64,000 nt of DNA, from assembly GCA_964408485.1 (NCBI GenBank), contig CAYOZJ010000001.1:28366-92365 (forward strand), in the 5' to 3' direction. This stretch comes from an uncultured Gammaproteobacteria bacterium. GTDB taxonomy: Bacteria; Patescibacteriota; Microgenomatia; Levybacterales; UBA12049. This document shows, one piece after another, positions 3,048 to 46,106 of the stretch (positions are counted from its first letter, which is position 1; each line of letters opens with the position of its first letter). The notes beneath the pieces were generated by a model that worked only from the letters and a program-made list of their open reading frames with translations, made no database searches and was not told where the DNA came from. The position numbers and the translations under genes are program-made.

Positions 3048-3072
3048 GTCATTCTGAACGAAGCGAAGAATC
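3048..3072. repeat. short hairpin repeat unit GTCATTCTGAACGAAGCGAAGAATC (family A)
   Basis: Member of the dispersed GTCATYC...GRATC family, whose copies are listed in the findings. Confidence 0.7.
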
Positions 3073-3080
3073 TAGAAATA

Positions 3081-3131
3081 GGTGAGCAAACCTCACCCCA
3101 ACCCTCTCCTAAAAGGCGAGGGAGATCAAGG
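3081..3131 (+). promoter_or_regulatory. conserved thrS leader: GGTGAG-loop-CTCACC hairpin plus CCCTCTCC-TAAAAGG-CGAGGGAG hairpin (family D)
   Basis: The same two-hairpin arrangement, with the same GTCAT-type element before it, precedes pheS at 6470-6524. A TAAAAGG/TAGAAGG loop sits between complementary CCTCTCC/GGAGAGG arms just 5' of the AAGGA RBS. Confidence 0.45.
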
Positions 3132-3139
3132 AAAAATTT

Positions 3140-4900
3140 ATGAATATGGAAAAATTACAACATCTTAGGCATACGGCAGCACATTTACTTGCTGCAGCTG
3201 TTTTGCGCTTATATCCTGGCGCACATAATGCCATAGGACCATCAATCGAGGAAGGATTTTACCAAGACTTTGATATGGGCGAGCATAAAATTTCTGAGAA
3301 TGATCTTCCAAAAATAGAGGAAGAAATGAGAAAAATTGTTAAAGATTGGCATCACTTTGAAGTAAAAGAAGTAACACCGGATGAAGCAAGAAAAGCATTT
3401 GCTCACAATCCTTATAAATCAGAGCTTATAGAGGAGTTTGCTAAAGAAGGCAAAACAATTACCCTCAATAATCCTGGTGATTTTCTCGATCTTTGTAAAG
3501 GCGGACACTCTGACAACCCAGCAGAAGAGCTGAAGCATTTCAAGCTAATGAAGCTTGCTGGTGCATATTGGAGGGGAAGCGAAAAAAATAAAATGCTTAC
3601 CAGAATTTATGGAACAGCATTTTTCTCTCAAAAAGAATTGGATGACTATCTCCAAATGCTTGAAGAGGCAGAAAAACGAGACCATAAAAAATTAGGCAAA
3701 GAACTTGATCTATTTTTCTTTACAGAAACAGCTCCAGGTATGCCATATTGGTTACCAAAAGGACTTATTGTCTTCAATGAGCTTCTTAATTTTTCAAGAA
3801 GTGTAAGGAAAAGCTACGGCTATACAGAAATCATGACACCCATTATGTCCAAAAAGGAATTGTATGAGACATCAGGACATTGGTTTCATTACAGAGATGA
3901 CATGTTTATTTCCCCAATGAGCTATCTTCGCGGAGATAGTAAGGATCCATACGTTGGAGCAGAGATTTTTGGCATAAAACCAATGAATTGCCCCAATGCA
4001 ATGACTGTTTTTGCATCTATGACACGCTCGTATAGAGATTTGCCAATGAGATTATCCGAAACAACAGCACTTCATAGATTTGAATTATCTGGAACACTGA
4101 ATGGACTTTTCAGGGCGCGAGAATTTCATCAGGATGACTCCCATATTTTTGTGGGCATGAATCAAGTGGGAGAAGAATTTCAGAGAATTATTGAAACAAT
4201 TGAAATTTTCTATAAAGCGTTTGATCTTAAATACAAGCTTCGCTTTGGCACAAGACCAGAAAACTTTATGGGAGAAGCAAAGGACTGGGATATTGCAGAA
4301 AGAGAACTCAAGGTTGTTTTAGACAAATCAGGCCAAGAGTACTTCGAAGCAGCAGGAGAAGGGGCATTTTACGGACCAAAAATAGATATTCTTATGAAAG
4401 ACTCATTGGGCCGTGAATGGCAAACAGGGACAATTCAGCTTGATTTCCAGCAACCGAAAAATTTTAAACTAAAATACACAGATAGTGAAGGGAAGGATGT
4501 CCAACCTGCAGCATTCCATGTAGCGATTTATGGCTCATTTGAGCGCTTCCTTGGCATTCTTATTGAGAATTTTGAAGGAAAGCTTCCAACCTGGCTCGCG
4601 CCTGTCCAAGTTGCCCTTCTTCCTATTGCTGACAGGCACAATGACTATGCACAAAGTGTGGCTAAAGAGCTTGAAAAGATGGGATTTCGTGCAGAAGTTG
4701 ACAGTAGCCCAGAACGTCTCCAGGCTAAAATACGCAATGCAACTTTACAACATGTACCATTTATGGGTATAATAGGGGACAAGGAAATTGAGAATAAGGC
4801 TATCTCTGTAAGGAAACGAAGCAGTGAAGATTTAGGACCAATCTCTTTAGACCAATTTTTAGCCCAACTTAAGGGAGAAGTAGAAAACAAAGTTGTATAA
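3140..4900 (+). CDS. thrS: threonyl-tRNA synthetase
   Basis: Class II aaRS with HLRHTAAHLLAAAV, a tRNA_SAD editing-domain region and an anticodon-binding domain. At 586 aa it lacks the N-terminal TGS domain. Confidence 0.95.
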   Translation: MNMEKLQHLRHTAAHLLAAAVLRLYPGAHNAIGPSIEEGFYQDFDMGEHKISENDLPKIEEEMRKIVKDWHHFEVKEVTPDEARKAFAHNPYKSELIEEFAKEGKTITLNNPGDFLDLCKGGHSDNPAEELKHFKLMKLAGAYWRGSEKNKMLTRIYGTAFFSQKELDDYLQMLEEAEKRDHKKLGKELDLFFFTETAPGMPYWLPKGLIVFNELLNFSRSVRKSYGYTEIMTPIMSKKELYETSGHWFHYRDDMFISPMSYLRGDSKDPYVGAEIFGIKPMNCPNAMTVFASMTRSYRDLPMRLSETTALHRFELSGTLNGLFRAREFHQDDSHIFVGMNQVGEEFQRIIETIEIFYKAFDLKYKLRFGTRPENFMGEAKDWDIAERELKVVLDKSGQEYFEAAGEGAFYGPKIDILMKDSLGREWQTGTIQLDFQQPKNFKLKYTDSEGKDVQPAAFHVAIYGSFERFLGILIENFEGKLPTWLAPVQVALLPIADRHNDYAQSVAKELEKMGFRAEVDSSPERLQAKIRNATLQHVPFMGIIGDKEIENKAISVRKRSSEDLGPISLDQFLAQLKGEVENKVV

Positions 4901-5474
4901 ACGTACATTCAGTCCAAGACAACAATTTCGAATAAATGAGCGAATTTTCGCAAATTCTCTTCGGGTTTTGGACATAGAGGGCAAACAAGTTGGTGTTCTT
5001 TCAAAAACAGAAGCATTAAATAAAGCTCGCGAATTAGGAGTAGACCTGGTCGAAGTCGCACCACAAGCTACCCCTCCTGTTGCTAGACTTATTGATTACA
5101 ATAAGTTTTTGTACCAGGTAGAGAAGAAAAAGCGAGAAGAAAAACGAAAAGCAAAATCAACCGAGACAAAAGAAGTGAGGCTTGGACCCTTTATGGGTGC
5201 AGCCGATCTGGATAACATGACCAATCGGGCGAAAGGCTTTTTGCAGGACGGAAATAAAGTCCGTTTAGTGCTGAAATTCAGGGGAAGACAAATTGTTCAT
5301 CCTGAATTTGGACATGAAACAATTCAGAAGATGGTTGCAGCGTTAGCAGATGTTTCGAAAGTCGAAAAAGAACCTCGACTTGAAGGAAAACAGCTTATTG
5401 CAATTATCTCACCAGAAAGGAAAAAAACAAAAAATGAAGAAGAAAATCAAGAACTCAGTAGCCAGACGGTTTAA
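4893..5474 (+). CDS. infC: translation initiation factor IF-3
   Basis: INERI...LRVLDIEGKQVGVL...ARELGVDLVEV IF3 N- and C-domain signatures in the classic infC-rpmI-rplT order. Lys/Glu-rich C-terminal extension. Confidence 0.9.
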   Translation: MYKRTFSPRQQFRINERIFANSLRVLDIEGKQVGVLSKTEALNKARELGVDLVEVAPQATPPVARLIDYNKFLYQVEKKKREEKRKAKSTETKEVRLGPFMGAADLDNMTNRAKGFLQDGNKVRLVLKFRGRQIVHPEFGHETIQKMVAALADVSKVEKEPRLEGKQLIAIISPERKKTKNEEENQELSSQTV

Positions 5475-5628
5475 AGTTACCAAAACAGGTAAGGTACTTT
5501 TTGCACATCAAAATGCAGGGCATTTAAAAGCAGCAAAGTCTAACCGAAATAAAAGACGTAATAAAGTCCCAGGAGTACTTCCTGAAATGTTTGGAAGAAA
5601 AATAAAGAAGATGCTAGGGTATCTATAA
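5434..5628 (+). CDS. rpmI: 50S ribosomal protein L35
   Basis: MKKKIKNSVARRFKVTKTGKVLFAHQNAGH matches the L35 pattern (KxKTxxxxxKRFKxTxxGKV). The start was chosen at the internal Met, so it overlaps the infC 3' end. The ORF-track start at 5350 is probably too long. Confidence 0.8.
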   Translation: MKKKIKNSVARRFKVTKTGKVLFAHQNAGHLKAAKSNRNKRRNKVPGVLPEMFGRKIKKMLGYL

Positions 5629-5688
5629 AGAAAGGTTTATTCTTCGAGCGAAGCGAGAAGTTCTCACATTCGTTCGAACAATACATAT

Positions 5689-6039: not shown

Positions 6040-6040
6040 T

Positions 6041-6304: not shown

Positions 6305-6341
6305 CAAATAAACTCTTTTTCTTTACATTTATTTCCTTTAA

Positions 6342-6390
6342 TTAGGAGGTTTTGTAGTGAAAAGCAAAAACCTCCGAAGGGAGGTTTTTT
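6342..6390 (+). terminator. family-F motif copy 3: AGGAGG...CCTCC GAAG GGAGG T6
   Basis: Hairpin CCTCC/GGAGG followed by a T-run. The upstream AGGAGG is complementary to the same CCTCC. Confidence 0.55.
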
Positions 6391-6393
6391 AAT

Positions 6394-6450
6394 GTCATCC
6401 CGCACTAGATGCGGGATCCAGAATTAGATTCCTGCTTTCGCAGGAATGAC
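6394..6450. repeat. composite hairpin repeat: GTCATCC-CGCACTAGATGCG-GGATC plus GATTCCTGC-TTTC-GCAGGAATGAC
   Basis: Two hairpin units in opposite orientation give overall terminal inverted repeats GTCAT...ATGAC. The same composite is at 16108-16167 and, in-frame, inside recG and the HhH-GPD gene. Confidence 0.7.
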
Positions 6451-6469
6451 AATCTGTTCTATAATCTAT

Positions 6470-6524
6470 GTGAGGAAATAACCTCACCTCAATCCTCTCC
6501 TAGAAGGAGAGGAAGAATAAAAGG
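6470..6524 (+). promoter_or_regulatory. conserved pheS leader (GTGAGG-loop-CCTCAC hairpin plus CCTCTCC-TAGAAGG-AGAGG hairpin; family D)
   Basis: Paralogous to the thrS leader at 3081-3131, immediately 5' of the pheS RBS. Confidence 0.45.
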
Positions 6525-6536
6525 AGAAAATTATAT

Positions 6537-7598: not shown

Positions 7599-7599
7599 T

Positions 7600-7971: not shown

Positions 7972-7973
7972 CT

Positions 7974-10215: not shown

Positions 10216-10246
10216 GATTGCCACGTAGCGAGCTCCTCGCAATGAC
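10216..10246. repeat. hairpin repeat unit GATTGCCACG-TAGCGAGCTCCT-CGCAATGAC (family A/B)
   Basis: GATT...AATGAC flanks around an imperfect inverted repeat, in the spacer between the small ORF and the PBP 3' end. Confidence 0.6.
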
Positions 10247-10280: not shown

Positions 10281-12566
10281 TTACGGTGTAGGCGTTGGGG
10301 TCGTTGGTTGGGTTGGCTGAATGTTAAGTGACTTCAATAAATCATCTGGTGGGTACCACTGATAATCTGCTGCTGAATGATTATCCTTAATCCATTGGTC
10401 TATTCCTGCTTGCCACCTATTTTGTCCATCTGTTGAGACTGGATCGTCTTCTCGGACTATATAGTAGATCTTTCCATCCTTACTTTGATACACAGGACTT
10501 GCTGATGTTGGCTCGGTTCCCTTGATGAAATATTCAGAACGTGTTGGCTGATTATTATAAGGAAGTCCACCAAAAAGCGTATCTACATTTACTGCTACAA
10601 TATTATCCGGCTTTTGCGGTTCTTCATTGGGCTTGCCCTTAAGCACATAGCTCATAATCTTATTCCAAATAGGGGACGCACCTGTTATACCTGATGCAAT
10701 TGCCTGATTCATTGCCGTATTGTCATTATTACCAACCCATACGCCGACAACATAAGACGGCGTGTACCCAACAGTCCAGTTGTCCTTTTTACTATCTGTC
10801 GTACCTGTTTTGACACTCACTGTCTTACCTGACACAACAAGCCAAGAATTTGTTCCGAATTCCAGAGAGCGGGCATTATTATCTAGTAATATATGAGAAA
10901 TTAGATACGTTACTTCTTTCGGCATTACTTGCACACCCGGCTTATCGTGATTTTCAAAAAGCACATTCCCATGACTATCAGTCACCTTAAGTATCGAGAC
11001 CGGGTCATGTCTCTGCCCTTGATCTGCAAATACGCTGTATGCTGTCATTTCATCAAGAAGTGTTGTTTCACGTCCTCCCAGGACAAGAGAGAGTCCTACA
11101 TCTTTCATATTTTCAGCCGTTGGCTCCCAATTCGTAATACCCATGTTGTAGCCTGTTGTCATCGTATCTTTAATACCTACTTTTGCAAGCATCTTTACTG
11201 CTGGAATATTCATAGAATTGCCCAAGGCAAAGCGAAGCTGAATGGGTCCATGATATTTTCCATCATAGTTAACTGGGGTATAGGTCGGATTCGCTGCCTC
11301 TCCTGTTGGAAAATCTGTCTTTACATCCATTATTTCTGTTGCCGGTGTATAACCTTTTTCAAAAGCTGTTGCATACATAATAGGCTTTAGAGACGATCCC
11401 GGCTGTCTATTAGCTAGAGCATCGTTATAATTCCCATCAATTGTTGTATCAAAATAATCTGTATTACCAACCATTGCTAAAATCTGGCCATTTTTTGGAT
11501 CCATTACCATTGCTGCGCCATTTGCAACATGATACCCCTTTAGATTTGCAATTTCTGTCTTCACGATATCTTCTGCATGTTTTTCGTAATCGTAATCGAG
11601 CGTTGTTGTTACTTGCAGTCCACCATTTTCTACAGCTGCTTCCCCAAATTGCTGTGCGAGAAGTTGTTTGACATACATTACCCAGTGGGGCGCTTTAATA
11701 GACCGATCGGTATCGGAGAATTTCATTGCTTGCACTTCTTTGTAGGCACTGTCATCCTCTTTTTGGGAAATATATCCTTCTTGCTGCATTGCATCGAGTA
11801 CTGCCTTTGTTCTGGCTAAATAGTATTTATTACCAGTAAATGGTGAGTACACACTTGGCGCCTGAGGAAGTCCTGCTAAAAATGCAGACTGCGCTAAATC
11901 CAGATCTTTCACATCTTTTCCAAAGTAAGCTTGCGCTGCAGATTCTACACCAATATTTGCTCCCCCATATGGTACGTCGTTAAGATACATTTCCAAAATT
12001 TGATCTTTGGAATATCTTTTATCCACTTGGATTGCCAAGATAAGCTCTTTGAGTTTTCGGACAAAGGTTTGTTGTGTGTCCTGAAGAAGGACATTTTTGA
12101 CTAATTGTTGAGTAAGTGTAGACCCTCCTCCTTCAATTCTTCGATAAACAATAAGATAAACTGCCGAGCGAAGATATCCTGTTACAGAAAATCCTGAATT
12201 AGTATAAAAATTTCTATCCTCGATGGAGATTGTTGCGCGTTGGACATTTTTTGGAATATCTTTTAATTGGACATAGGCTCTATTTTGATCTTTATACACA
12301 GAGTAGAGAAGTACGCCCTTTCTGTCAAAAATACGTGTAGACTCTGCAAGACTACTATTAATGAGTTTTCCCGGAGCGGGAAGATCGCGTCCATACCAAA
12401 TAAAGAGGAAAACAAAAATAACAACACCGATAATAAGCGCAAAAAGTGTAAGTCTGGCAAGACGACTATAGAGCACCATTCGAGACGATCCATTCACTGG
12501 GGGAAAGAGAAATCGCCAAAAACTAACAAGCAAACTCTGACGGCGACGCCTAGAGCGGAATTCCAT
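10281..12566 (-). CDS. class A penicillin-binding protein (transglycosylase/transpeptidase)
   Basis: GT51 motif GGSTLTQQLVKN, transpeptidase SxxK and KTG(T) motifs, N-terminal TM segment, Pro/Thr-rich C-terminus. Start placed at MEFRSRRRR; the ORF-track start at 12641 is also possible. Confidence 0.9.
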   Translation of the reverse strand: MEFRSRRRRQSLLVSFWRFLFPPVNGSSRMVLYSRLARLTLFALIIGVVIFVFLFIWYGRDLPAPGKLINSSLAESTRIFDRKGVLLYSVYKDQNRAYVQLKDIPKNVQRATISIEDRNFYTNSGFSVTGYLRSAVYLIVYRRIEGGGSTLTQQLVKNVLLQDTQQTFVRKLKELILAIQVDKRYSKDQILEMYLNDVPYGGANIGVESAAQAYFGKDVKDLDLAQSAFLAGLPQAPSVYSPFTGNKYYLARTKAVLDAMQQEGYISQKEDDSAYKEVQAMKFSDTDRSIKAPHWVMYVKQLLAQQFGEAAVENGGLQVTTTLDYDYEKHAEDIVKTEIANLKGYHVANGAAMVMDPKNGQILAMVGNTDYFDTTIDGNYNDALANRQPGSSLKPIMYATAFEKGYTPATEIMDVKTDFPTGEAANPTYTPVNYDGKYHGPIQLRFALGNSMNIPAVKMLAKVGIKDTMTTGYNMGITNWEPTAENMKDVGLSLVLGGRETTLLDEMTAYSVFADQGQRHDPVSILKVTDSHGNVLFENHDKPGVQVMPKEVTYLISHILLDNNARSLEFGTNSWLVVSGKTVSVKTGTTDSKKDNWTVGYTPSYVVGVWVGNNDNTAMNQAIASGITGASPIWNKIMSYVLKGKPNEEPQKPDNIVAVNVDTLFGGLPYNNQPTRSEYFIKGTEPTSASPVYQSKDGKIYYIVREDDPVSTDGQNRWQAGIDQWIKDNHSAADYQWYPPDDLLKSLNIQPTQPTTPTPTP

Positions 12567-12689
12567 ATAGCCTATTATGGCAAAGTTTTGGAGCAAAAAC
12601 AACTCAACTTGCAAAACCAGATAAATTATTATAAGATACACCTTATGACTGGCTTTGACTTAGATTATCGATGTGAACACCCTGATCCA

Positions 12690-15990: not shown

Positions 15991-16107
15991 GCTTATGGAA
16001 TTTTTTAGAAAGCACCAGTGGGTTTTACGAACACTTATTATTATTGGTAGCTTAGCGCTTATTCTTGGCGCAATTGCCCCATATCTTCTTCTTGGACAAC
16101 AATAATC

Positions 16108-16167
16108 GTCATCCTCGACCTGATCGGGGATCCAGGAAATAGATTGCCGCGCTTCGCTCGCAATGAC
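16108..16167. repeat. composite hairpin repeat (GTCATCCTCGACC..GGGGATC plus GATTGCCGCGCTTCGCTCGCAATGAC)
   Basis: Same two-unit architecture as 6394-6450, immediately upstream of the recG promoter. Confidence 0.7.
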
Positions 16168-16189: not shown

Positions 16190-18283
16190 ATGAAACTCTC
16201 AACCCCGATTACTAATGCAGGTAAACTGTATGCAAATTACGCAGGCCGCTTGGAAAAACTCGACATTTTTACCTTAAAGGATTTTTTGTATCACTTGCCA
16301 GCTCGCTATGACGACTTCTCTCATATTGTTGCAATTAAAGATTTGGTCGCTGGCGAGTTAGTAACAATACAGGGACAAATTACCGAAATAACAAATAGCT
16401 ATACACGGTCTCGTAAGCAAATTCAAAAAGCAACAATCACCGACGACAGCGGGACACTGCCTGTTATTTGGTTTAATCAACCATACATCACCAAGACGTT
16501 AAAGTTTGGTGATAGCGTGTCTTTATCAGGGAGAGTGCAATCGGATGGATTTATTCCAAGTCTTGTTGCACCTGATTTTGAAATTATTCCAATGAGCGGT
16601 AGGACAATTCATACTGGCAGGCTTGTCCCAGTGTATCCTGAGACAGCAGGGGTCAGCTCCAAATGGCTAAGACGCCAAGTAGATAAGTTACTTGCAACCT
16701 CTTATGAACTTGTTGAATTTCTACCAGATGAAACGCAAAAACGCCTTGACCTCATGCCATTTAATAAGGCCATTGCTCAGATTCATTTTCCCGATGCTCT
16801 AGGAGAATCAGAAAAAGCCCGCGAGCGCTTAGGATTTGATGAAATCTTTTTACTTCAATTAGCAAATATAAAAAGAAAAAGGGAGTGGCAAGAAAAAGTA
16901 TTAGGAAATACATTTGCGATAGAAAAATTCCAAAAGGAAATTGATAAATTTTGGGAAAGCCTACCATTTGAGCCAACAAGCGCGCAAAGACGAGCAATTC
17001 ATGAGATTATGAGTGACCTTGCTAGCCCTCATGCAATGAATAGATTACTCCAGGGAGATGTAGGAAGTGGCAAAACAATCGTCGCTGGTATTGCAATGTA
17101 TATGGCATTTTTAAATGGTTTTCAATCTGTCCTTATGGCACCAACAGAAATTTTAGCCAATCAACATTACGAAACACTAAAAAAATTACTCGAGCCGCTT
17201 GGAGTAAAGGTTGACTTAGCAACTGGTTCTAAAAAAACAGAACGCGTCATTGCGAGCGAAGCGAAGCAATCTAATATTAATAAGGAGAAGATTGCCGCGT
17301 CGTCTTCGACTCCTCGCAATGACAATTCATTTGACATCCTTATTGGTACCCATGCCGTACTTTCTGACAAGATAAATTACGAAAAATTAGGACTTGTTGT
17401 TATTGATGAGCAACATAGGTTTGGAGTAGAGCAACGATCTATTATTCGCTCCAAAGGCACAAATCCCCATGTCCTTACCATGACAGCAACACCAATCCCT
17501 CGTACCGTTGCGCTTACACTTTATGGGGATCTTGAGCTTTCTATTCTTGATGAAATGCCCAAAGGAAGACAAGTTATTAAGACATGGCTTGTCCCTAATC
17601 AAAAGCGTGAAGCAGGATATGAGTGGATAGAAAAACAAATTAAGAAAGGCGATCAGGCATTTATTGTCTGTCCGTTTATTGAAGAGTCTGAATCCCTAAC
17701 TACTATTAAAGCAGCGAGTAGTGAATTTGAACAACTTCAAAAACATGTTTTCCCAAAGCTCAAACTCGGACTTTTGCACGGAAAAATGCGAGCAAAAGAG
17801 AAAGATGAAGTTTTGGAGAAGTTTCGAAAGGGCAGTATAGATATTCTCGTCGCGACACCAGTTGTTGAAGTTGGCATAGACATTCCAAATGCAACAATTA
17901 TCCTTATTGAGGCAGCAGAAAGATTTGGACTATCACAGCTTCATCAACTCAGAGGTAGAGTTGGGAGAGGAGATAAGCAGTCATATTGCCTTCTTTTTAC
18001 CGAGAGTAGCAGCCCTCAAGCAACCCAACGTCTTAAAAGTATGGAACACATTCATAATGGCGCGGAATTAGCAGAGTTAGACTTAAAAATGCGAGGCTCT
18101 GGGGACTTATACGGCACTCTTCAACACGGCAGAAAATGGCTTAAAATAGCCTCATTTTCCGATACCAGACTTTTGGAAATAGCCAAACAAGAGGCAATAC
18201 GAGTTTTTCCAGATCTAAATAAATATCCACTTCTTATTGAGAAAATTGAAGAAACGGCCACAAAACAGGTTAGTCCAGACTGA
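16190..18283 (+). CDS. recG: ATP-dependent DNA helicase RecG
   Basis: Wedge domain, Walker A GDVGSGKT, DEQH box, helicase C motifs. Carries a 78-nt in-frame repeat insertion at 17246-17323. TATAAT lies 8 nt upstream of the ATG. Confidence 0.95.
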   Translation: MKLSTPITNAGKLYANYAGRLEKLDIFTLKDFLYHLPARYDDFSHIVAIKDLVAGELVTIQGQITEITNSYTRSRKQIQKATITDDSGTLPVIWFNQPYITKTLKFGDSVSLSGRVQSDGFIPSLVAPDFEIIPMSGRTIHTGRLVPVYPETAGVSSKWLRRQVDKLLATSYELVEFLPDETQKRLDLMPFNKAIAQIHFPDALGESEKARERLGFDEIFLLQLANIKRKREWQEKVLGNTFAIEKFQKEIDKFWESLPFEPTSAQRRAIHEIMSDLASPHAMNRLLQGDVGSGKTIVAGIAMYMAFLNGFQSVLMAPTEILANQHYETLKKLLEPLGVKVDLATGSKKTERVIASEAKQSNINKEKIAASSSTPRNDNSFDILIGTHAVLSDKINYEKLGLVVIDEQHRFGVEQRSIIRSKGTNPHVLTMTATPIPRTVALTLYGDLELSILDEMPKGRQVIKTWLVPNQKREAGYEWIEKQIKKGDQAFIVCPFIEESESLTTIKAASSEFEQLQKHVFPKLKLGLLHGKMRAKEKDEVLEKFRKGSIDILVATPVVEVGIDIPNATIILIEAAERFGLSQLHQLRGRVGRGDKQSYCLLFTESSSPQATQRLKSMEHIHNGAELAELDLKMRGSGDLYGTLQHGRKWLKIASFSDTRLLEIAKQEAIRVFPDLNKYPLLIEKIEETATKQVSPD
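17246..17323. repeat. composite hairpin repeat inserted in-frame within recG (78 nt, 26 codons)
   Basis: GTCATTGCGAGCGAAGCGAAGCAATC, a spacer, then GATTGCCGCGTCGTCTTCGACTCCTCGCAATGAC. It encodes ...ASEAKQSNINKEKIAASSSTPRNDNS.... A near-identical second half is in the HhH-GPD gene at 38596-38703. Confidence 0.75.
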
Positions 18284-18544: not shown

Positions 18545-18569
18545 GTCATACTGAGTAAAACGAAGGATC
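18545..18569. repeat. hairpin repeat unit GTCATACTGAGTAAAACGAAGGATC
   Basis: Family A unit in the rpmF-nusB spacer. Confidence 0.6.
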
Positions 18570-19841: not shown

Positions 19842-19865
19842 ATTATAATTACAAAATTTATGCAA

Positions 19866-19889
19866 TCATCCTGAGCAGTGCGAAGGATC
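19866..19889. repeat. hairpin repeat unit ATCATCCTGAGCAGTGCGAAGGATC
   Basis: Family A unit in the rpsP-KH spacer. Confidence 0.6.
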
Positions 19890-26164: not shown

Positions 26165-26173
26165 TTGAAATTT

Positions 26174-26740: not shown

Positions 26741-26772
26741 TGGTAAATGGTAAATAATAAATCGTCAATGGG

Positions 26773-27416: not shown

Positions 27417-27418
27417 TA

Positions 27419-28213: not shown

Positions 28214-28935
28214 ATTAGTGCTAGTAATGCTCCGAGAAAAAGGAAAGGTCCAAAAGCAATTGTGCTTCCTTTAAATTTCTTTTTCCCTTCTAAAATGAGT
28301 ATGACGCCGCATATACCACCTGTCAAGAAAGCTATATAGTATGCAACAACAATATATGGAAATCCAAGAAGAAATCCTAAAATTGCAACAAGTTTTACAT
28401 CTCCAAACCCCATCCCCCTGCCTTTAGAAAAAAGAAAAATAAGAAAAAGCGGTAAACTAGCCATAATAGCTACAACTAATCGCAAAGGAATCGTTGTGGG
28501 ATCGACAAGGAAAACAGCACACACAACAAGAATTCCAAACACAATAAGCAATGCATCCGACAAGATATGATACTTGATATCCATAATCGCAAGAGCAATC
28601 CCTAGAGAAAACAGTAACGCACTAATTGAATACATACCGAGATGAACCATATCGGTAGGCCACTGAAAAAGAAAAATCCCAATAAAAGCGATGCCAGTGA
28701 GAAGTTCTATGAGAGGGTATTGAAAAGAAAGCTTTTTATGACAATACCTACATTTTCCTCTCAGGAAGGCAAAGGACACAATTGGAATGAGATCAAACGC
28801 AGAAAGAGTATGATGACAAAAATCACAATGTGACCGACCAAAAAGTACTGATTTATTTGCAGGTATTCTATCAATCAAAACATTAAGAAACGAACCCATA
28901 CATAATCCAAAAATAAATAAAAAAAATATTGCCAT
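28165..28935 (-). CDS. pilD: prepilin peptidase (A24 family)
   Basis: N-terminal CxxC...CxxC zinc-binding cytoplasmic domain and polytopic membrane domain (GMGFGDVKL region). Confidence 0.9.
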   Translation of the reverse strand: MAIFFLFIFGLCMGSFLNVLIDRIPANKSVLFGRSHCDFCHHTLSAFDLIPIVSFAFLRGKCRYCHKKLSFQYPLIELLTGIAFIGIFLFQWPTDMVHLGMYSISALLFSLGIALAIMDIKYHILSDALLIVFGILVVCAVFLVDPTTIPLRLVVAIMASLPLFLIFLFSKGRGMGFGDVKLVAILGFLLGFPYIVVAYYIAFLTGGICGVILILEGKKKFKGSTIAFGPFLFLGALLALIWGDFLWKYAVRILGF

Positions 28936-28998
28936 AAAACAACCCTCACCCTTGTATTCCCTCTCCCAAAAGGAGAGGGGGCTTTGTCACGTTACCCA

Positions 28999-30153
28999 TT
29001 ATGCTACCCAATAATTAAGACTATGCATCACAAGAAAAAGTCCTTGTAATAGTAAGCTTATGTAGAGATATGGAAAAGTAATTGTTTCATATTTTTTTTC
29101 ATATGACATAATCGATAAACATACAAATAAAGGAAAAATAATAACCAAATATCTTGTGTATGACATAAAACTACCACCCAAGACGGGCAACAATCCAAAG
29201 CAAAGACTATAAACAAAATATACTGCAGACACTCTTTTTCTCATAAAGAAAAGGGATACAACAAAGGAGAAAAAAAACAGTCTATCAAGCAGGGAATCAG
29301 TAAATCCATGAATATGCAATGGAAAAGTAAACAATGCCTTAAGAAAAAAGAGAGGATTAAAAAGAGAAAAAAATGAATAATGAGAAACAAAATTTTGCTG
29401 TGCGCTAAACTGTGCAAACAAGCTTCCCGCTGTAATATAATAGATGATCATTGCAAGAATAAGCCCAAAAATGGGAAGAAAAAGAAAGAGTGTCTTTTTT
29501 TGTAATACTGTTTTCCCAATAACATGCATTTCGTCATAAAAAGAATGACGAGAATATTCAAGAATATAGGAAAAAAAGAAAGGAATAAGTATCGCAACTC
29601 CAATCAAACGCGTCAACGGAAGGAAGAATGCAACAAGAGATGCTCTGACAAGTTTTTTTTCTTGGAGAAAAAGAAAGAATAAAATAACAAGCAGGAAAAA
29701 CAGACTTTCTGTGTAAATAAGAGAGAAATAAAAACTTGTTGGAAAAGCAAGCAGCAGCAACAGGCTTCTTTTTGCAATTTTTTCGTTGTATTGATTCTTA
29801 ATCAAGAGATAAAACAAGTAAAAGCCGATACAAGAGAAAACATTTGCAAGTACCATCCCTGCAACAAAACTATTTCTTACTATCAACGTTGTGAGAAATA
29901 TAATAAAAGGCAAAAGAGGAGAGAATGCATTAGATTCATCATTTTTATGATATCCTTTCTCGCTTATATAAAGATAGTGCTGTGCATCCCATGTTTTATA
30001 TGAAGTGACAAGTGAAATTTGTTCGCGTATTGGATACGTAAAATTTGCAAAATATGTTGGTGCATTAAATGGTAAAAGAGAAAAACAAAGAAAAATAAAA
30101 ACAACAATACAAATTTTTACTGACAGAATAATAAAAATTATATCTCGTTTCAT
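28999..30153 (-). CDS. polytopic membrane protein, putative GT-C-fold glycosyltransferase
   Basis: About 11 predicted TM segments and a WDAQHYLYISEKGY motif in the first extracytoplasmic loop, reminiscent of GT-C mannosyltransferases. Functional assignment is inferential. Confidence 0.45.
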   Translation of the reverse strand: MKRDIIFIILSVKICIVVFIFLCFSLLPFNAPTYFANFTYPIREQISLVTSYKTWDAQHYLYISEKGYHKNDESNAFSPLLPFIIFLTTLIVRNSFVAGMVLANVFSCIGFYLFYLLIKNQYNEKIAKRSLLLLLAFPTSFYFSLIYTESLFFLLVILFFLFLQEKKLVRASLVAFFLPLTRLIGVAILIPFFFSYILEYSRHSFYDEMHVIGKTVLQKKTLFLFLPIFGLILAMIIYYITAGSLFAQFSAQQNFVSHYSFFSLFNPLFFLKALFTFPLHIHGFTDSLLDRLFFFSFVVSLFFMRKRVSAVYFVYSLCFGLLPVLGGSFMSYTRYLVIIFPLFVCLSIMSYEKKYETITFPYLYISLLLQGLFLVMHSLNYWVA

Positions 30154-30162
30154 ACAATAGGT

Positions 30163-32196
30163 TTATTTACTTGATACTCCAAGCGTATCTTTTGACGCTG
30201 ACAATGCCTTTTGAAAGTCTTTGCGATAGAGTTGGGTATAGGCGATACTTACCTCACTTGCTCTTTTTTTATCTTTAAAACAATTCAGATACATAGTATA
30301 TAAGAGAAAGTATGGTGTTTCTTGATACTGGTTGAGTGCTAGTGATTGAGAAAGATTATCTGCTGCATAGCCACATTTTCCAGCAATTCCAGAATATAAA
30401 ACTCCCAACGCGCTATATGCTTTATCATTATTCGGCTCAATATCGCGGGCTTTTTTATAGAAAGAAAGCGCGCTATCTGTATCTTGATAGCGTGTATAGA
30501 TAAAGGTTCCAGTAGCAATAAGTGAATTACTATACGCATTGGGGATTTCCGCAATTGTTAGGCTATGAGCAACAGGATTTTTTCTTTCTTCAATTGTTGG
30601 AGCATGAAGCGTTGACCAAATAGAACCAACTTGCATTTCGTAACTTTTTTTGTCGGGGAGACGATCTACATCTTGATACATTTCAAAAACAAGTCCGAAA
30701 GGTACCCATATAAGTTTTTCGCCTGTTTTGGGTTGAAATTGAGTTGTTGAAAAAATTCGCCGTGTGCTACTCATCGAACGGACTATCTTTATTAGTGCTT
30801 CTGTTCTATTTTTCGAGCTAACTCCTTTAAGACCATCTGCAATACTATTGTGCGTTACAGGTGTTGCCCCTATATTATAAAGGAGAATGTCTGGCCGGTC
30901 ATGAAGCGCGTAATGCACATACCATGTATTAAAAATTTGTGTATCCCCAGATATAAGAAGTACAGCATTACGCGGCAATGGATCGAGAAAGTCTTTCGCG
31001 TAGGTATCGCCAATCATAAGGGATGCAAGATTTGTCTTAGGGGTATTATAGACAAAAAGCATGAGCGGAATGAAAAGAAAAAGACAGGTAAAAAGAACTT
31101 CATAATGACGTTTGGGTAAAAAGCTTGCAAGACGCACAGTAAATACATAAAGGCCAATTCCAAAAGGAATAAGAAAAATCACCGTTGAAAGTAAGGTAAA
31201 TCGTTCGTATGCACCAATAATAAAACTGCTTGTTAAAGGAAATCCTGCATACATCAAAAAAACTGGACCAGAAAGCAACCACGCAAGAAATAGTGACGTG
31301 AAGAGTATTTTATCCTTTTTGAAAATGTGCCAAAACCCAAGAAAAGTAAGTACTATCGTTGGAATTGTTAACTGAAATAAAAGATACTGTACATAAAGCC
31401 ATAAGGTAACAAGGCGTTGCGCAAAGGAAGGCGTATCAAAAATACCAGCTTGAAAGGTACCATAATCTTTCCGGAGAATTAAATGAAAAAAGGAGGGAAT
31501 ATCATGAACTGAATCCCAATTAATAATTGGGTTATGGGCAGATGCAATAAAAATATATAAGAAAGGTGTTAATCCAAGAACAAATGATAAAAGCAAAAGA
31601 AGAATCAATAACATATTCTTTTTTATCTGAAGAAATAATTGTTTCCCAATTAATAGAAAAAGTGATGGAACGATAAGAATAATTGTTGAATGATGCGTAG
31701 AGGCAAGTCCGAGGCAAAAAAAGAAAAGATACAATACGGGTCCTTTTTTACTTTGACGAAAAAGAAGCGCCAAAAGAAATAGCACAAGCGCAAAGAATGT
31801 ATTTAACATAAATACTTCAGCAACTTCCGCATAAAACCAATAGAGAAAAGAGAATCCAAGAATGAGTGATGCAACAACACTGTTTAATGAATTTTTTGTA
31901 AGTTGCTTGGTAAAAAGATAAAAACATACAACGCCACCTGCTCCCGCAAATGCAGAAATTAACCCAACGGCAAATGCAGGAGAAATACGAGCAAGAATGG
32001 AATGAGTTAGTAAAAATCCTAGAAAGGTGAATAACGGATATCCTGAAGGGTGAGCAACTCCTCCAACGCTTGCTGCTGTTACTAAGTCGCCAACATCTCC
32101 TCCATAAATACTTCTCGAGAGATGACTAACGTAAAGCAGCAAAAATCCACTAAACAAAAATGTGGGCAGGATAATTTTCTTAACTAAAGAGAGCAT
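30163..32196 (-). CDS. DUF2723/TMEM260-like GT-C membrane protein with C-terminal TPR repeats
   Basis: N-terminal polytopic domain with GGDVGDL...HPSGYPLF loop, then a soluble C-terminal TPR region (YKKARDIEPNNDKAYSALGVLY...). Confidence 0.55.
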   Translation of the reverse strand: MLSLVKKIILPTFLFSGFLLLYVSHLSRSIYGGDVGDLVTAASVGGVAHPSGYPLFTFLGFLLTHSILARISPAFAVGLISAFAGAGGVVCFYLFTKQLTKNSLNSVVASLILGFSFLYWFYAEVAEVFMLNTFFALVLFLLALLFRQSKKGPVLYLFFFCLGLASTHHSTIILIVPSLFLLIGKQLFLQIKKNMLLILLLLLSFVLGLTPFLYIFIASAHNPIINWDSVHDIPSFFHLILRKDYGTFQAGIFDTPSFAQRLVTLWLYVQYLLFQLTIPTIVLTFLGFWHIFKKDKILFTSLFLAWLLSGPVFLMYAGFPLTSSFIIGAYERFTLLSTVIFLIPFGIGLYVFTVRLASFLPKRHYEVLFTCLFLFIPLMLFVYNTPKTNLASLMIGDTYAKDFLDPLPRNAVLLISGDTQIFNTWYVHYALHDRPDILLYNIGATPVTHNSIADGLKGVSSKNRTEALIKIVRSMSSTRRIFSTTQFQPKTGEKLIWVPFGLVFEMYQDVDRLPDKKSYEMQVGSIWSTLHAPTIEERKNPVAHSLTIAEIPNAYSNSLIATGTFIYTRYQDTDSALSFYKKARDIEPNNDKAYSALGVLYSGIAGKCGYAADNLSQSLALNQYQETPYFLLYTMYLNCFKDKKRASEVSIAYTQLYRKDFQKALSASKDTLGVSSK

Positions 32197-32202
32197 GAGA
32201 GC

Positions 32203-32763
32203 CTATTGCGAGCACCAATAGCAGGCAGTTGATGTTGGATTACAATCTCCAGTTGGTGAGTGTGGCGAACCATCTCTATTAAATTTAGCATTTGGATCCG
32301 ACCTTTGAGCTTTTGATTGTGGTTGGAAGCAGGCGGTAATATCGGTATCTGTTCCACTGACAATGATACTAGTTAATACACTCGTTACTGTCGTGAAGGC
32401 AGCCTTAATCTCTCCATCTGACACAAGACTACTCAAGCAAGTTACCAAATCAGGATTAAGAGACAATGACGTTGGATTATTATTGCCATTACACCCATTA
32501 TGCCATGGCATACTGTTATGAGTTGTGTAGTAGCGAATATTTGCATCAATAAATTCAACCGCAGTATTTTTAGTGTTCGCATCATTTGCTTTCTTAAGCT
32601 GCTCGAATGGATCAATAGTTGCAACAAGCGCTGCAGCCAAAACACCTAAAATACCAATAACAACAAGGAGTTCGATAAGGGTAAAACCCTTTTGTGAAGA
32701 AATATGAAAACTCCTTAGGAGTTTGGACAGTTTTTTCATGAATCTATACTTTAAGTTAAACAT
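32203..32763 (-). CDS. type IV pilin-like protein
   Basis: KGFTLIELLVVIGILGVLAAALVATI class III signal and N-terminal helix. Start may be the second Met (MKKLSKLL). Confidence 0.75.
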   Translation of the reverse strand: MFNLKYRFMKKLSKLLRSFHISSQKGFTLIELLVVIGILGVLAAALVATIDPFEQLKKANDANTKNTAVEFIDANIRYYTTHNSMPWHNGCNGNNNPTSLSLNPDLVTCLSSLVSDGEIKAAFTTVTSVLTSIIVSGTDTDITACFQPQSKAQRSDPNAKFNRDGSPHSPTGDCNPTSTACYWCSQ

Positions 32764-37768: not shown

Positions 37769-38425
37769 ATGCAAAGTTTTATTATTGCTTCCCGCAACAC
37801 AGAAAAAAGAAAAGACTATATAGAAAGTTTTTGCACCAGCAAATCTATTAGCCAATTTGACAAGCACTATATACAACCTGGAGAAAATTCCTTTGGTATT
37901 ACCGAAATCAGAAATGTTCAAAAAACAGCATTCCTTCGTCCACAAAAAGGAAGTGAGAAAGCAATTATTTTGGAGAATGCCCAAAAGCTTACTACAGAGG
38001 CCCAAAACGCATTACTCAAAATGCTGGAAGAACCTCCTACAAATACCTATATTTTCTTGTCTGCAACAACAGAGAATTTCTTTCTTCCAACTATCCTCTC
38101 ACGATGCAAGCTGATTATATTGCCAGAACAAGACACTACGATTTCTGATGAAGAAAAAGAGATACTACACAGTCAGATACAAATTATGACAACAGGTACT
38201 GTTGGCGATAAATTATATCTTGCTGAAAAGGTAGCAGGGGAGAAGGAGAAAATAGGGGAGTGGTTACGAGAAATCGTACTCCTTCTTCGAGACAACATGC
38301 TCGAAGATCCAAAGAATGCTACATATCCTAATTTTATTGTACAAATGCAGGAAGCGAGTAAGTTTTTCCAAACAACAAATGTCGCCCCACGAGTATTACT
38401 TGAGCATACATTTCTTTCTCTATGA
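37769..38425 (+). CDS. holB: DNA polymerase III delta' subunit-like (short)
   Basis: AQNALLKMLEEPP and TILSRC motifs of clamp-loader delta'. Reduced length of 218 aa. Confidence 0.7.
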   Translation: MQSFIIASRNTEKRKDYIESFCTSKSISQFDKHYIQPGENSFGITEIRNVQKTAFLRPQKGSEKAIILENAQKLTTEAQNALLKMLEEPPTNTYIFLSATTENFFLPTILSRCKLIILPEQDTTISDEEKEILHSQIQIMTTGTVGDKLYLAEKVAGEKEKIGEWLREIVLLLRDNMLEDPKNATYPNFIVQMQEASKFFQTTNVAPRVLLEHTFLSL

Positions 38426-39099
38426 AATTTAATGATCCAATACTGCAGGAGTTAGTCAAAAAATATCCTGCGCCAAAATTTGAAGACCGGACAGGAAAAC
38501 TTTATGAAGAATTGGTTGAATCTATTATTTCCCAACAACTATCTGTCAAAGCATCAGATACTATATATAAGCGGTTTAAGGACTTATTTAAACCTGTCAT
38601 TGCGAACAGTGCGCGACCCCTCGGCGAAGATAGTCCCGAGTCGGGAAAGCAATCTAATACAAATAACGAGATTGCCGCGTCGTCTTCGACTCCTCGCAAT
38701 GACGCCTTCCCATCGCCTCAACAAGTTCTTGCCATGTCGGACGAACTTCTTCGAACAGCAGGTATTTCTTTTCAAAAAATTTCCTATATAAAAAGTGTTG
38801 CCGATGCTTTTATTTCCGATTTAATTGATGTTGAAAAAATAAAGAAAATGACTAATGATGAAGTGATTGAGACACTTACCCAAATTCGGGGAGTAGGGAA
38901 GTGGACTGCAGAAATGACTCTTATTTTTACACTCAAAAAACCTGATGTATTTTCTTTGGGAGACTTAGGTCTTCGCAATGCAATTACCAAGCTGTATGGA
39001 ATAACAGATCAAAAGAAAATGCTTGAGTTATCTGAAACCTGGAAACCTTTTAGAAGTTATGCGTGTTGGTATTTGTGGAGAAGTCTGGAGAATAGTTAA
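38422..39099 (+). CDS. HhH-GPD superfamily DNA glycosylase (AlkA/3-methyladenine glycosylase II-like)
   Basis: Helix-hairpin-helix GVGKWTAEM followed by a catalytic Asp. Contains a 108-nt in-frame repeat insertion at 38596-38703. Confidence 0.7.
   Translation: MKFNDPILQELVKKYPAPKFEDRTGKLYEELVESIISQQLSVKASDTIYKRFKDLFKPVIANSARPLGEDSPESGKQSNTNNEIAASSSTPRNDAFPSPQQVLAMSDELLRTAGISFQKISYIKSVADAFISDLIDVEKIKKMTNDEVIETLTQIRGVGKWTAEMTLIFTLKKPDVFSLGDLGLRNAITKLYGITDQKKMLELSETWKPFRSYACWYLWRSLENS
38596..38703. repeat. composite hairpin repeat inserted in-frame within the HhH-GPD glycosylase gene (108 nt, 36 codons)
   Basis: GTCATTGCGAAC...GGGAAAGCAATC plus TAATACAAATAACGA plus GATTGCCGCGTCGTCTTCGACTCCTCGCAATGAC. 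The 33-nt second unit is identical to the recG copy. Encodes ...ARPLGEDSPESGKQSNTNNEIAASSSTPRNDA.... Confidence 0.75.
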
Positions 39100-39540: not shown

Positions 39541-41526
<1,986 letters not shown>

Positions 41527-44867: not shown

Positions 44868-44911
44868 CTACTTGATTTTATTTTATTTGCTCTTTATAAT
44901 CCTTACTTAAT

Positions 44912-45175
44912 ATGTCAGGACAACAAGGATCAAGAAGAAACCCCTCGGGAAGACCAACCCCCGCTCAAGATGAAATCTTAGATATGGCTAGATCAAGAGG
45001 AACGTTTGACTTACGCGTATTAAGAGAAGAAGCAAACCTTCGTGAGTTATCAATTCCTTATGAGGGAGCATTGAGAAGACTTGCAGAAAATCAAGGAGTC
45101 GAGGTCAAGGGTAACAAAAAATGGCGTTCAGATCTAGAGAAAAAACTCCAAAGCAAACCAGCGGAATCTGAATAA
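44912..45175 (+). CDS. small hypothetical protein (87 aa)
   Basis: Intact ORF, basic. No family recognised. Confidence 0.4.
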   Translation: MSGQQGSRRNPSGRPTPAQDEILDMARSRGTFDLRVLREEANLRELSIPYEGALRRLAENQGVEVKGNKKWRSDLEKKLQSKPAESE

Positions 45176-45198
45176 AGAAATTTTGCTATAATAGCCTC

Positions 45199-46053
45199 AT
45201 GTTGTTAGATGGAAAAACAGTTGCCAATTATATTCTTGCTGGACTTATCGAGCGTGTAGATTTGCTGCAAGAGCAAAATATTCAGCCTCACTTGGCTGTT
45301 ATTCAAGTTGGGGAAAATCCCGAATCCACTTCTTATATTGTCCAGAAAGAAAAAAAAGCTAGAGAAATTGGTGTAGTTGTAAGCGTTTATAATCATCCAG
45401 AGGATATATCTCAGGAAAAGTTACAAGAAACAATTGATTTTCTACAAAAAGACGGCACAATTCATGGCATTATCTTGCAGCTACCCATTCCAAAAAGTCT
45501 TGACGCACAAAAACTTATTGATTCAATTCCACCAGAAAAAGATGTTGATGGATTTGTACCCAACTCACCATTTATTGTCCCCATTGCTGCCGCAATTATG
45601 AAGCTCTTGGAGGTGCCAATGATGAAAGAAGCACTAACAACAGGAGAATCCTTTAACGAATGGCTTTTATCCAAGCAGATTGTTGTTATGGGAAAAGGGA
45701 CAACAGGAGGAATGCCAATTATTCAAGAACTTCAAAAAAGAGGAGTCGAGCCTATTGTCATTGATTCAAAGACACAAAACCCAACAGAAGCAACAAAACG
45801 CGCAGATATTATTATAACCGCTGTTGGCAAACCTGGAATTTTAACAAGAGATATGATTAAAGAGGACGCTATCCTTCTAAATGTTGGCATGACAAGGGAA
45901 GGTGACGGCAAGTTTGTTGGAGATTACACTGAAGAAGACATAAAGGATATTGCTGGGTGGTACAGCCCAACTCCAGGCGGCGTTGGACCGGTTAATGTGG
46001 CATGTTTACTCGAAAATGTTGTAATAGCTGCAGAGAAAACATCTTCAAATTGA
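45199..46053 (+). CDS. folD: bifunctional methylene-THF dehydrogenase/methenyl-THF cyclohydrolase
   Basis: N-terminal catalytic and C-terminal NAD(P)-binding domains (GKGTTGGMPI..., PGGVGPVNVACLLEN). Confidence 0.9.
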   Translation: MLLDGKTVANYILAGLIERVDLLQEQNIQPHLAVIQVGENPESTSYIVQKEKKAREIGVVVSVYNHPEDISQEKLQETIDFLQKDGTIHGIILQLPIPKSLDAQKLIDSIPPEKDVDGFVPNSPFIVPIAAAIMKLLEVPMMKEALTTGESFNEWLLSKQIVVMGKGTTGGMPIIQELQKRGVEPIVIDSKTQNPTEATKRADIIITAVGKPGILTRDMIKEDAILLNVGMTREGDGKFVGDYTEEDIKDIAGWYSPTPGGVGPVNVACLLENVVIAAEKTSSN

Positions 46054-46081
46054 CAAAGAAAATACAATTTCCATTTTCTTT

Positions 46082-46106
46082 GTCATCCTGAGCAAAGCGA
46101 AGGATC
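46082..46106. repeat. hairpin repeat unit GTCATCCTGAGCAAAGCGAAGGATC
   Basis: Family A unit just after folD, followed by a promoter-like TTGACA-N18-CATAAT at 46149-46178 and two intrinsic terminators at about 46186-46216 and 46253-46280. Confidence 0.6.

Follow-up and report, generated by a model that had tools for sequence, protein, structure and literature searches.

The 64,000-nucleotide stretch of DNA analysed here, referred to as the window (contig CAYOZJ010000001.1 of assembly GCA_964408485.1, positions 28,366 to 92,365), carries a dispersed family of hairpin units of about 25 nt that are likely to be CGTC-tagged repetitive palindromes of the repetitive extragenic palindrome (REP) and Rickettsia palindromic element (RPE) type, non-autonomous elements that would be moved in trans as single-stranded DNA (ssDNA) hairpins. 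The window, with a GC content of 38.5%, is assigned to the Patescibacteria, near Candidatus Levybacteria, by its RecG and DNA glycosylase homologues, and its units represent a new host lineage and a sub-variant of a published class rather than a new kind of element. With this assignment, the candidate phyla radiation (CPR) joins the hosts of the CGTC-tagged REP/RPE class. Regular-expression, repeat and profile scans identify 15 CGTC-type units, all within 2.7-46.1 kb (Table 1), seven of them single and eight paired as four head-to-head dimers (GTCAT…ATGAC).

Anatomy, class membership and distribution

The units share a common design, consisting of (C/T)GTC, AT, a variable self-complementary core, AT again and then C with a short tail. 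The foot of the hairpin is made of an A-T and a T-A pair, the interior pairs vary provided that pairing is kept, and both the 5' YGTC tag and the C-led tail are unpaired. The tag is present in 13 of the 15 window units, the exceptions being 19865 (ATC) and the remnant at 5638, and C or T precedes GTC in 71 of 76 units across loci. The AT…AT foot is found in every clean unit, its invariance in alignment A1 being by construction, as the foot was used as a selection criterion. The C of the tail is invariant; the window units 6394 and 16108 end in CCA and the others in CTA, CTC or CTT, and the counts across loci are 24 for CTC, 13 for CTA and 13 for CCA. Tags point outward in 4/4 window dimers and in both dimers of the relative at locus L121, while the Bacteroidales loci contain tail-to-tail pairs and tandem partial copies besides head-to-head dimers.

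The existence of a dispersed family with conserved termini, as put forward in the original prediction, is borne out by the presence of the motif at all the loci listed there, by compensating stems and by motif counts. The strict motif (GTCAT, a stem of at least 5 bp starting at AT, and ATC within 36 nt) occurs 12 times in the window, against 1.8 +/- 1.2 (maximum 5) in 200 dinucleotide shuffles. An nhmmer profile trained on 132 units from other organisms only, with the window left out, recovers six window units with E-values from 4.5e-9 to 5e-3, and scores 18545 at 0.07 and the remnant at 5638 at 0.18 (Table 1). Covariation was assessed on 41 distinct 25-nt candidates picked by their termini alone, a set that includes some false ones. 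Across its nine positions the stem is 71.5% paired with a covariation of 0.327, as opposed to 59.1% and 0.145 in shuffles, none of 500 reaching the observed values, and slid stem partners used as a control yield at most 40% pairing and a covariation of at most 0.17. Both sides have changed in 14-16 sequences each at stem positions 3, 5 and 8, and at positions 6-7 the main subtype has G·A/A·G and the others have Watson-Crick pairs. Cases of G·T versus A·C mismatch, which might tell which strand folds, are too few to reveal an asymmetry. A looser definition (TCAT…ATC with a 5-bp stem) is no commoner in the window than chance (26 against 19 expected), as it would be if the family were a loose motif coincidence in an AT-rich genome, but the strict count, the independent profile and the covariation above 500/500 shuffles have already refuted that explanation and leave it virtually no probability.

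Among the loci originally listed, 3048-3072, 10216-10246, 46082-46106 and the dimers 6394-6450 and 16108-16167 are clean, whereas 18545 and 19865 are weaker and ~5645-5675 corresponds only to a decayed remnant. The list had also missed the unit at 2735-2759 (-) and the dimers 17246-17323 and 38596-38703; most copies are intergenic, as had been stated, but these two dimers lie inside genes.

The hairpins themselves are of more than one kind. The plain 8-bp units 6394, 6427 and 16108 have 4-5-nt loops and DNA folds of -9.0, -7.8 and -5.0 kcal/mol (z = -5.4, -6.0 and -1.8), and in the remaining units a stem of 5 bp encloses a conserved GA-GCGAAGC-GA(A) core or a longer inner hairpin. The non-8-bp units comprise five Watson-Crick pairs, G·A/A·G, two further pairs and a 3-nt loop, which amounts to nine stacked positions and not to 8-9 standard pairs. 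The intergenic dimers are heterodimers with two independent hairpins each, and each of the intragenic dimers folds into one long hairpin (z = -6.1 in recG and -4.2 in the glycosylase gene). The conservation of hairpins assumed from the outset is upheld by stem covariation, but with nearest-neighbour DNA parameters a clear excess of stability over shuffles is seen only in the three 8-bp units and the two intragenic dimers. Nearest-neighbour tables do not cover the heptamer d(GCGAAGC), other mini-hairpins with GNA loops or tandem sheared G·A pairs, all of which show unusual stability in DNA, and the G·A/GNA core of the GAGCGAAGCGAAG-type units may have a stability beyond nearest-neighbour values. 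In particular, d(GTCATTGCGAGCGAAGCGAAGCAATC) is predicted to form a stack of sheared G·A pairs on a GNA mini-hairpin that nearest-neighbour models miss.

The family had not been recognised as one already described, yet its anatomy is that of the CGTC-tagged REP superfamily (families CGTC-1 to -4) of Di Nocera, De Gregorio & Rocco (2013, BMC Genomics 14:522; PMC3733652), a likeness judged from the anatomy described and the peptides published there. In that survey two REP superfamilies are defined, the CGTC one including RPE-4/RPE-6 of Rickettsia conorii and dRS3 of Neisseria. Its members have an unpaired CGTC tag, often TGTC or CCTC, a stem of 8-9 bp whose first two positions are almost always a complementary A and T, a loop of 4-5 nt (with atypical loops in the CGTC-1 family of Bradyrhizobium) and an unpaired 3-nt tail, mostly CCA. 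They form mostly head-to-head dimers, lie near the 3' ends of open reading frames (ORFs), include intragenic copies, many of them in DNA synthesis and repair genes, and the survey found no transposase gene flanked by units. The window units share the YGTC tag, the A-T/T-A foot, the C-led tail, the head-to-head dimers, the location just downstream of ORFs, the in-frame copies in repair genes and the lack of a linked transposase. The published 8-bp stem with a 4-5-nt loop is found in three window units only, most of the others having a 5-bp Watson-Crick stem that closes the GA-GCGAAGC-GA(A) core instead of a plain 8-9-bp stem, and the host belongs to the Patescibacteria, outside the five phyla given in 2013 (Proteobacteria, Chlorobi, Bacteroidetes, Spirochaetes and Thermotogae). 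Of the repeat-encoded peptides given in the survey (VIPAKAGI, which corresponds to CGTC-1, SFPRKRES, DSRFRGND and IPAFAGMT), none of those intragenic peptides matches the GA-GCGAAGC-GA(A) subtype. VIPAKAGI is nevertheless encoded again by inserts in orthologues of recG and of the glycosylase gene (P0003, P0137 and P0147), and unit 6427-6450 is consistent with a back-translation of this peptide that differs by one compensated pair. A literature search found no report of REPs or RPEs together with Patescibacteria (CPR), and searches with the DNA strings of the units and their encoded peptides returned nothing relevant.

The distribution of these sequences is wide. A scan of one-genome-per-species contigs (596 Gb) with the pattern GTCATYSYGAGCGAAGCGARSRRATC returned at least 120 stretches in at least 10 phyla, against a chance expectation of about 0.03 matches if uniform base composition is assumed. 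Hosts among the matches listed include Bacteroidales, Hyphomicrobiales/Bradyrhizobium, Verrucomicrobiota, Gemmatimonadales, Acidobacteriota, Nitrospira, Planctomycetota, Chloroflexota, Trichodesmium, Elusimicrobia and Chlorobi-related bacteria, among others, and many of the listed stretches are the same head-to-head dimers. Since the pattern (…ARSRRATC) leaves out the perfectly paired AGCAATC form and is biased towards TCC/GGA variants, the match list illustrates breadth and not proportions; with the same restriction, viral contigs gave no match to the 26-mer pattern. Individual identities are close, the left unit of the recG dimer matching units of Bradyrhizobium guangdongense (L063) and of L081 at 26/26 positions, and unit 3048..3072 being one mismatch away from units in L064 and L080. 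In the Bacteroidales loci L045, L015, L018 and L102, tandem 18- or 24-nt partial copies stand beside CGTC units, e.g. (CAGCGAAGCGAAGGAATC)n, whose putative translation in the frame of the unit would be SEAKES repeats; this arrangement suggests slippage seeded by the repeat.

Insertion sites and translated copies

The window was compared with the syntenic loci L121/L123 (GCA_035457005.1, RecG 82% identical) and L122 (RecG 77% identical). The site of dimer 16108 is empty in L121 and L122, and the tyrS-recG spacer of L121 holds a different dimer about 110 nt upstream of it. Unit 18545 is missing from the rpmF-nusB spacer of both relatives, and unit 19865, in the rpsP-KH spacer, has an orthologous copy in L122 and none in L121. 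Across the syntenic stretch there are nine units in the window, four in L121 and one in L122. Neither the recG site nor the intergenic spacer sites have a target-site duplication, and the four resolvable target sites (…CGC|, …ATC|, …AGT| and …TTT|) present no obvious common motif. The comparison shows that the units are insertions, present or absent at orthologous sites and without target-site duplication, in agreement with the earlier suggestion of a mobile element; what it reveals is gain and loss, not recency.

The recG site is resolved to the codon. The dimer of 78 nt encodes 26 amino acids, VIASEAKQSNINKEKIAASSSTPRND, and orthologues without the insert measure 671 amino acids and are 76-78% identical. 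The window reads …AAA AAA ACA GAA CGC [GTC ATT … AAT GAC] AAT TCA TTT GAC and an empty relative …AAA AAA ACT GGT ACA AAA GCA TTT GAT, so that five codons separate KK from F in both and the insert is exactly the dimer; as the flanking codons are conserved in number, no target site was duplicated. This result bears on the label 'MITE-like' given in the original prediction, under which the units would be classical miniature inverted-repeat transposable elements, that is, deletion derivatives of an insertion sequence with a DDE transposase and GTCAT… terminal inverted repeats. The pairing in opposite orientation on which that label drew is indeed found in the four window dimers, and dimers of 57-108 nt with inverted ends of 5-11 nt (GTCATTGCGAG…CTCGCAATGAC) would suit such an origin. 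Against it stand the lack of target-site duplications at the recG and spacer sites, the abundance of single units, the joining of unrelated stems in heterodimers and the failure to find any insertion sequence with such ends, either within the window or among the 0.94 Mb of loci, and we regard it as highly improbable.

The second translated dimer, of 108 nt (36 amino acids), lies in frame in the HhH-GPD glycosylase gene. The structure PDB 3s6i aligns contiguously across the site (chain residues 78|79 corresponding to query residues 55|91), and AlphaFold2 models the insert as coil with a pLDDT of 43-75, the core being above 90. The recG and glycosylase dimers are paralogous in their arms and in their near-identical spacer, with 35/35 identical positions in the right arms (38669-38703 in the glycosylase gene and 17289-17323 in recG), and the data show the dimer acting as a unit of copying. 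Compared with its recG counterpart, the glycosylase dimer has an extra block of 33 nt in the loop of its left unit, which could be a nested insertion into the hairpin loop; the block (38606-38645) holds a small hairpin, CCCGAGTCGGG. The recG dimer is common to L121, where the right arm carries a 9-nt in-frame deletion, and the glycosylase site of the closest relative has only seven extra codons, ending in …CAA AAT GAC, which are probably a deletion remnant. These data show that copies decay by in-frame deletion and point mutation, and that copies survive both downstream of genes and, as translated in-frame inserts, in disordered surface loops of proteins. An intron, an intein or translational bypassing was considered for the intragenic copies and ruled out, the inserts being multiples of three, open in frame and subject to in-frame decay in the relative.

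Both loops have been filled repeatedly. The recG loop (between GSKK and DILIGTHA; window 17225-17340), a marked hot spot of in-frame insertion, has more than 10 extra residues (10-55) in 75 of 120 orthologues, about 13 of the inserts being CGTC-like (e.g. VIPAKAGIQ…VRDD and VIASKAKQS…AQDD), and the glycosylase loop (window 38590-38710) is filled in 31 of 120 orthologues and empty in 89, several of the inserts again being CGTC-like (VIPAKAGIQ…SGMT and RHPELVSGS…KRVRHD). The same two protein loops have been refilled by different palindromes in related lineages. This repeated use fits a tolerance filter, and targeting of insertions to these loops is possible. In terms of annotation, it should be taken as a warning that VIASEAKQS…PRND, VIPAKAGIQ and HPELVSGS in CPR proteins derive from repeats and are not functional motifs. 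As a separate observation, most recG-loop inserts are translated AT-rich palindromes unrelated to CGTC units (YKVSSIKY…NTKYIIQNTD; IKNQELRIK…HNSSFIIHNS), and the glycosylase loop harbours a further recurrent palindromic insert family, 'GVARxGDPQN…(E/D)RQDP'.

The signs of decay raise the question of whether the units are relics that spread long ago with a dedicated enzyme, now lost, and that today are immobile and subject only to decay, deletion and gene conversion; an extinct 'CGTC REPtron' is one of the hypotheses set out in PMC3733652. The decayed copies at 5638, 18545 and 19865, the sharing of the recG dimer with a relative at 82% protein identity (where it has suffered the 9-nt deletion), the probable AAT GAC remnant at the glycosylase site of the relative and the lack of a candidate enzyme in about 40 window ORFs or in 0.94 Mb of loci would all agree with it. 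It is harder to reconcile with the variation in unit density between syntenic regions (nine, four and one), with insertions at different positions of the same spacer, with a 35/35-nt identical arm and near-identical spacer in two genes, and with different CGTC subtypes filling the same protein loop in different lineages, and we deem it unlikely.

The position of the units relative to genes invites yet another explanation. Single units lie 4-35 nt past stop codons, and in 5/7 the tagged strand runs in the same sense as the gene upstream; the dimers 6394-6450 and 16108-16167 finish 8-9 nt short of TATAAT boxes. The location at operon boundaries, just after stops or terminators and in two cases just 5' of a TATAAT box, was correctly noted in the original prediction, which offered transcription punctuation as one possible role. 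A primary role of that kind is not supported, because two dimers are translated in frame inside recG and the glycosylase gene; moreover, the units are devoid of terminator T-runs, only 16147-16163 (-) passing a loose terminator scan, and promoter-like sites are not enriched (43 against 44.7 expected). More generally, the units might be selected structural motifs (3'-end mRNA stabilisers, processing sites or protein-binding sites) that do not move and whose repeated appearance arose by convergence on a required structure. The orientation and distance of single units from stops and the covarying stems are congruent with such a role, and E. coli REPs are described as affecting mRNA stability and binding gyrase, Pol I and IHF (background in PMC6006769 and PMC3733652). 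Yet a 3'-end role is impossible for the in-frame copies inside two ORFs, orthologous sites in relatives are empty and hold no replacement structure, two units (2735 and 6394) are already preceded by separate canonical terminators (2669-2686 and 6366-6389), and an identity of 26 nt across phyla is hard to obtain by convergence. We therefore find this explanation very unlikely as a general account, exaptation of individual copies being possible.

Mobilisation and related systems

If the units are, as we favour, CGTC-tagged palindromes moved in trans, several results weigh against that reading and have to be set beside it. Most units, those of the GAGCGAAGCGAAG type with a 5-bp stem, have a shorter stem than the 8-9 bp published and, under nearest-neighbour DNA parameters, are no more stable than shuffles (z ~0). 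In accordance with the original prediction, which reported no transposase in the window, a Pfam scan of about 40 ORFs there detects no transposase, HUH or nuclease candidate, and in the 0.94 Mb of loci no enzyme gene is consistently flanked by units. The identity of units across phyla is not explained by a vertically inherited, host-specific enzyme. Lastly, the relatives are distant (77-82% RecG identity) and the insertions may for that reason be old; those in recG and in the glycosylase gene probably arose before the closest relative diverged, in which case the 35-nt identity of their arms could be due to gene conversion and not to recent transposition.

Regarding candidate enzymes, the 18 unit-flanked ORFs in the 0.94 Mb of loci were judged by eye and none is transposase-like. 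A GIY-YIG nuclease gene with CGTC units on both sides (L087 3141-3488) was dropped, and no association with GIY-YIG nucleases can be claimed, because it is the sole GIY-YIG ORF in all the loci. The Pfam scan of the window likewise yields no RAYT (Y1 HUH) gene; the only recombinase it detects is a Xer-like tyrosine recombinase with Phage_integrase and SAM_1 domains at 48966-49988 (-). Two later papers (PMC6006769, PMC12306157) assign no enzyme to the CGTC class. The IS200/IS605 TnpA proposed originally is a reasonable analogy, in view of the GTAG REPs and their RAYT enzymes, but no transposase flanked by CGTC units appears in the 0.94 Mb of loci or in the published survey of the class (PMC3733652).

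By analogy with such systems, the elements would be non-autonomous and would move in trans as single-stranded hairpin DNA, perhaps at replication forks, with a trans-acting structure-specific nuclease or ligase reading the foot of the hairpin and the unpaired, guide-like tag, much as the RAYT HUH-Y1 enzymes do on GTAG REPs and as in IS200/IS605. The dimer would be the usual mobile unit, as in REPINs. That the enzyme is of the HUH type specifically is a tentative proposition, somewhat less probable than the contrary.

The closest parallels are the GTAG REPs and REPINs with their RAYT (TnpA-REP) HUH-Y1 enzymes (Nunvar 2010; Bertels & Rainey 2011, PMC3116915; Ton-Hoang 2012; Quentin et al. 2018, PMC6006769). 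They too are short hairpins with an unpaired 5' tetranucleotide at the foot and no target duplication, form inverted doublets able to fold as one long hairpin, as the two intragenic window dimers do, and are intergenic, downstream of genes, with occasional in-frame copies. The window tag, in contrast, is (C/T)GTC followed by AT and not GT[AG]G, and REPINs are described as host-specific and vertically inherited, whereas sequences of the window type are near-identical across phyla. Rickettsia palindromic elements resemble the window units in being palindromic repeats in frame in genes for functional proteins (Ogata et al. 2000, as cited in PMC3733652), but RPE-1 measures ~100-150 nt and is unrelated in sequence, only RPE-4/-6 being placed in the CGTC class in that account. 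The palindrome-associated elements derived from IS200/IS605 (PATEs) have in common the absence of target duplication and a hairpin-dependent single-strand logic, which for the window units would apply by analogy; they differ in that their left and right subterminal hairpins are distinct and lie on one strand, and in that they insert 3' of a fixed tetra- or pentanucleotide, whereas the ends of the window units are inverted copies and their four resolvable targets differ. Finally, the cyanobacterial small dispersed repeats of Elhai et al. (2008) reportedly measure 21-27 nt, nest in other palindromes and occur in Nostocales only; they can be likened to the window units in size, in nesting and in not being known to have an enzyme.

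A different possibility, which we rate as distinctly unlikely, is that there is no dedicated transposase and that a universal housekeeping replication or repair activity copies or moves a hyper-stable ssDNA hairpin made of the YGTC tag, the A-T foot and the GA/GNA mini-hairpin core. If true, it would explain why a CPR unit matches one of Bradyrhizobium at 26/26 nt, why no linked gene has been found since 2000 for RPEs and since 2013 for CGTC REPs, and why loops in DNA-repair genes have been colonised repeatedly. CPR bacteria are generally reported to have small gene sets and small, streamlined genomes, and the genome examined here still carries selfish palindromes, two of them translated in DNA-repair proteins. 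For the mobilising activity of the CGTC class, CPR genomes that contrast in repeat load narrow the search, and under a housekeeping origin CPR gene sets with lineage-variable loads would be the best place to find that activity by exclusion and phylogenetic profiling.

Unit coordinates and gene context

Table 1. Position, strand and setting of the CGTC-type units and dimers in the window, with the corresponding profile hits.
Coordinates	Strand	Feature	nhmmer hit (start; E)	Setting and remarks
2735..2759	-	Single unit GTCATTTCGAACAAAGTGAGAAATC	2733; 5e-3	49 nt after terminator 2669-2686
3048..3072	+	Single unit (T)GTCATTCTGAACGAAGCGAAGAATC(TA)	3047; 8e-8	Upstream of thrS
5638..5664	+	Decayed remnant ATTCTTCGAGCGAAGCGAGAAGTTC, without GTC tag	5643; 0.18 (core only)	Upstream of rplT
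6394..6450	both	Head-to-head heterodimer		Between terminator 6366-6389 and TATAAT box 6460-6465; left unit 6394-6418 (+), 8-bp stem, 5-nt loop; right unit 6427-6450 (-), 8-bp stem, GAAA loop; DNA fold -16.6 kcal/mol, z = -6.1
10216..10246	-	Single unit GTCATTGCGAGGAGCTCGCTACGTGGCAATC		Between convergent genes; 35 nt past stop of penicillin-binding protein gene 10281-12641 (-)
16108..16167	both	Head-to-head heterodimer	16141; 1.6e-5	Between small conserved ORF and recG, 4 nt after the ORF stop and 8 nt before the conserved recG TATAAT box; left unit 16108-16132 (+), CGTC tag, 8-bp stem, CCA tail; right unit 16142-16167 (-)
17246..17323	both	Head-to-head dimer, 78 nt	17245; 4.5e-9	In frame inside recG (16190-18283)
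18545..18569	+	Single unit, one stem mismatch	18543; 0.07	About 9 nt after rpmF (L32) stop
19865..19889	+	Single unit, degenerate tag ATCAT	19866; 2e-3	24 nt after rpsP stop
38596..38703	both	Head-to-head dimer, 108 nt	 	In frame inside HhH-GPD DNA glycosylase gene (38422-39099)
46082..46106	+	Single unit (T)GTCATCCTGAGCAAAGCGAAGGATC(TC)	46080; 2.6e-8	29 nt after folD stop

According to Pfam matches and synteny, the first part of the window comprises thrS-infC-rplT-pheST, a penicillin-binding protein gene, tyrS, recG and rpmF-nusB-rnc-rpsP-trmD, and the second part a type IV pilus cluster, holB, the glycosylase gene, gyrB, ppa, gyrA and folD. Rfam models match only two tRNAs in the window at gathering score and no CGTC unit; six dimer-bearing loci gave no match, and the surroundings of recG chance-level hits only. 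Between tyrS and recG, a small ORF (~15996-16106, +) encodes a hydrophobic peptide of about 36 amino acids (MEFFRKHQW…) and is kept in all three genomes (L121 5570-5680; L122 8905-9015).

A second repeat is found at 3081-3123 and 6470-6513, each copy closely following a CGTC unit or dimer on the 3' side; the start codons of thrS and pheS come about 20 nt later. It is a two-hairpin block containing AACCTCACCnCAAyCCTCTCCTArAAGG, present in two copies against none expected, and its RNA folds have z values of -2.9 and -4.1. Similar CCCTCACCC…CCTCTCCCC…GGAGAGGGG blocks follow CGTC units in L086 and L097, and the second repeat may be another cross-phylum palindromic repeat or a shared aminoacyl-tRNA synthetase leader. 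Elsewhere in the window, about 1 kb at ~51240-52200 is devoid of ORFs of at least 72 amino acids and of Rfam matches even at E<=1, and the type IV pilus cluster (24814-32688, -) contains six paralogous prepilin N-terminal segments (repeat family D1) and a 160-nt direct repeat, 90% identical, at 26573/27259.

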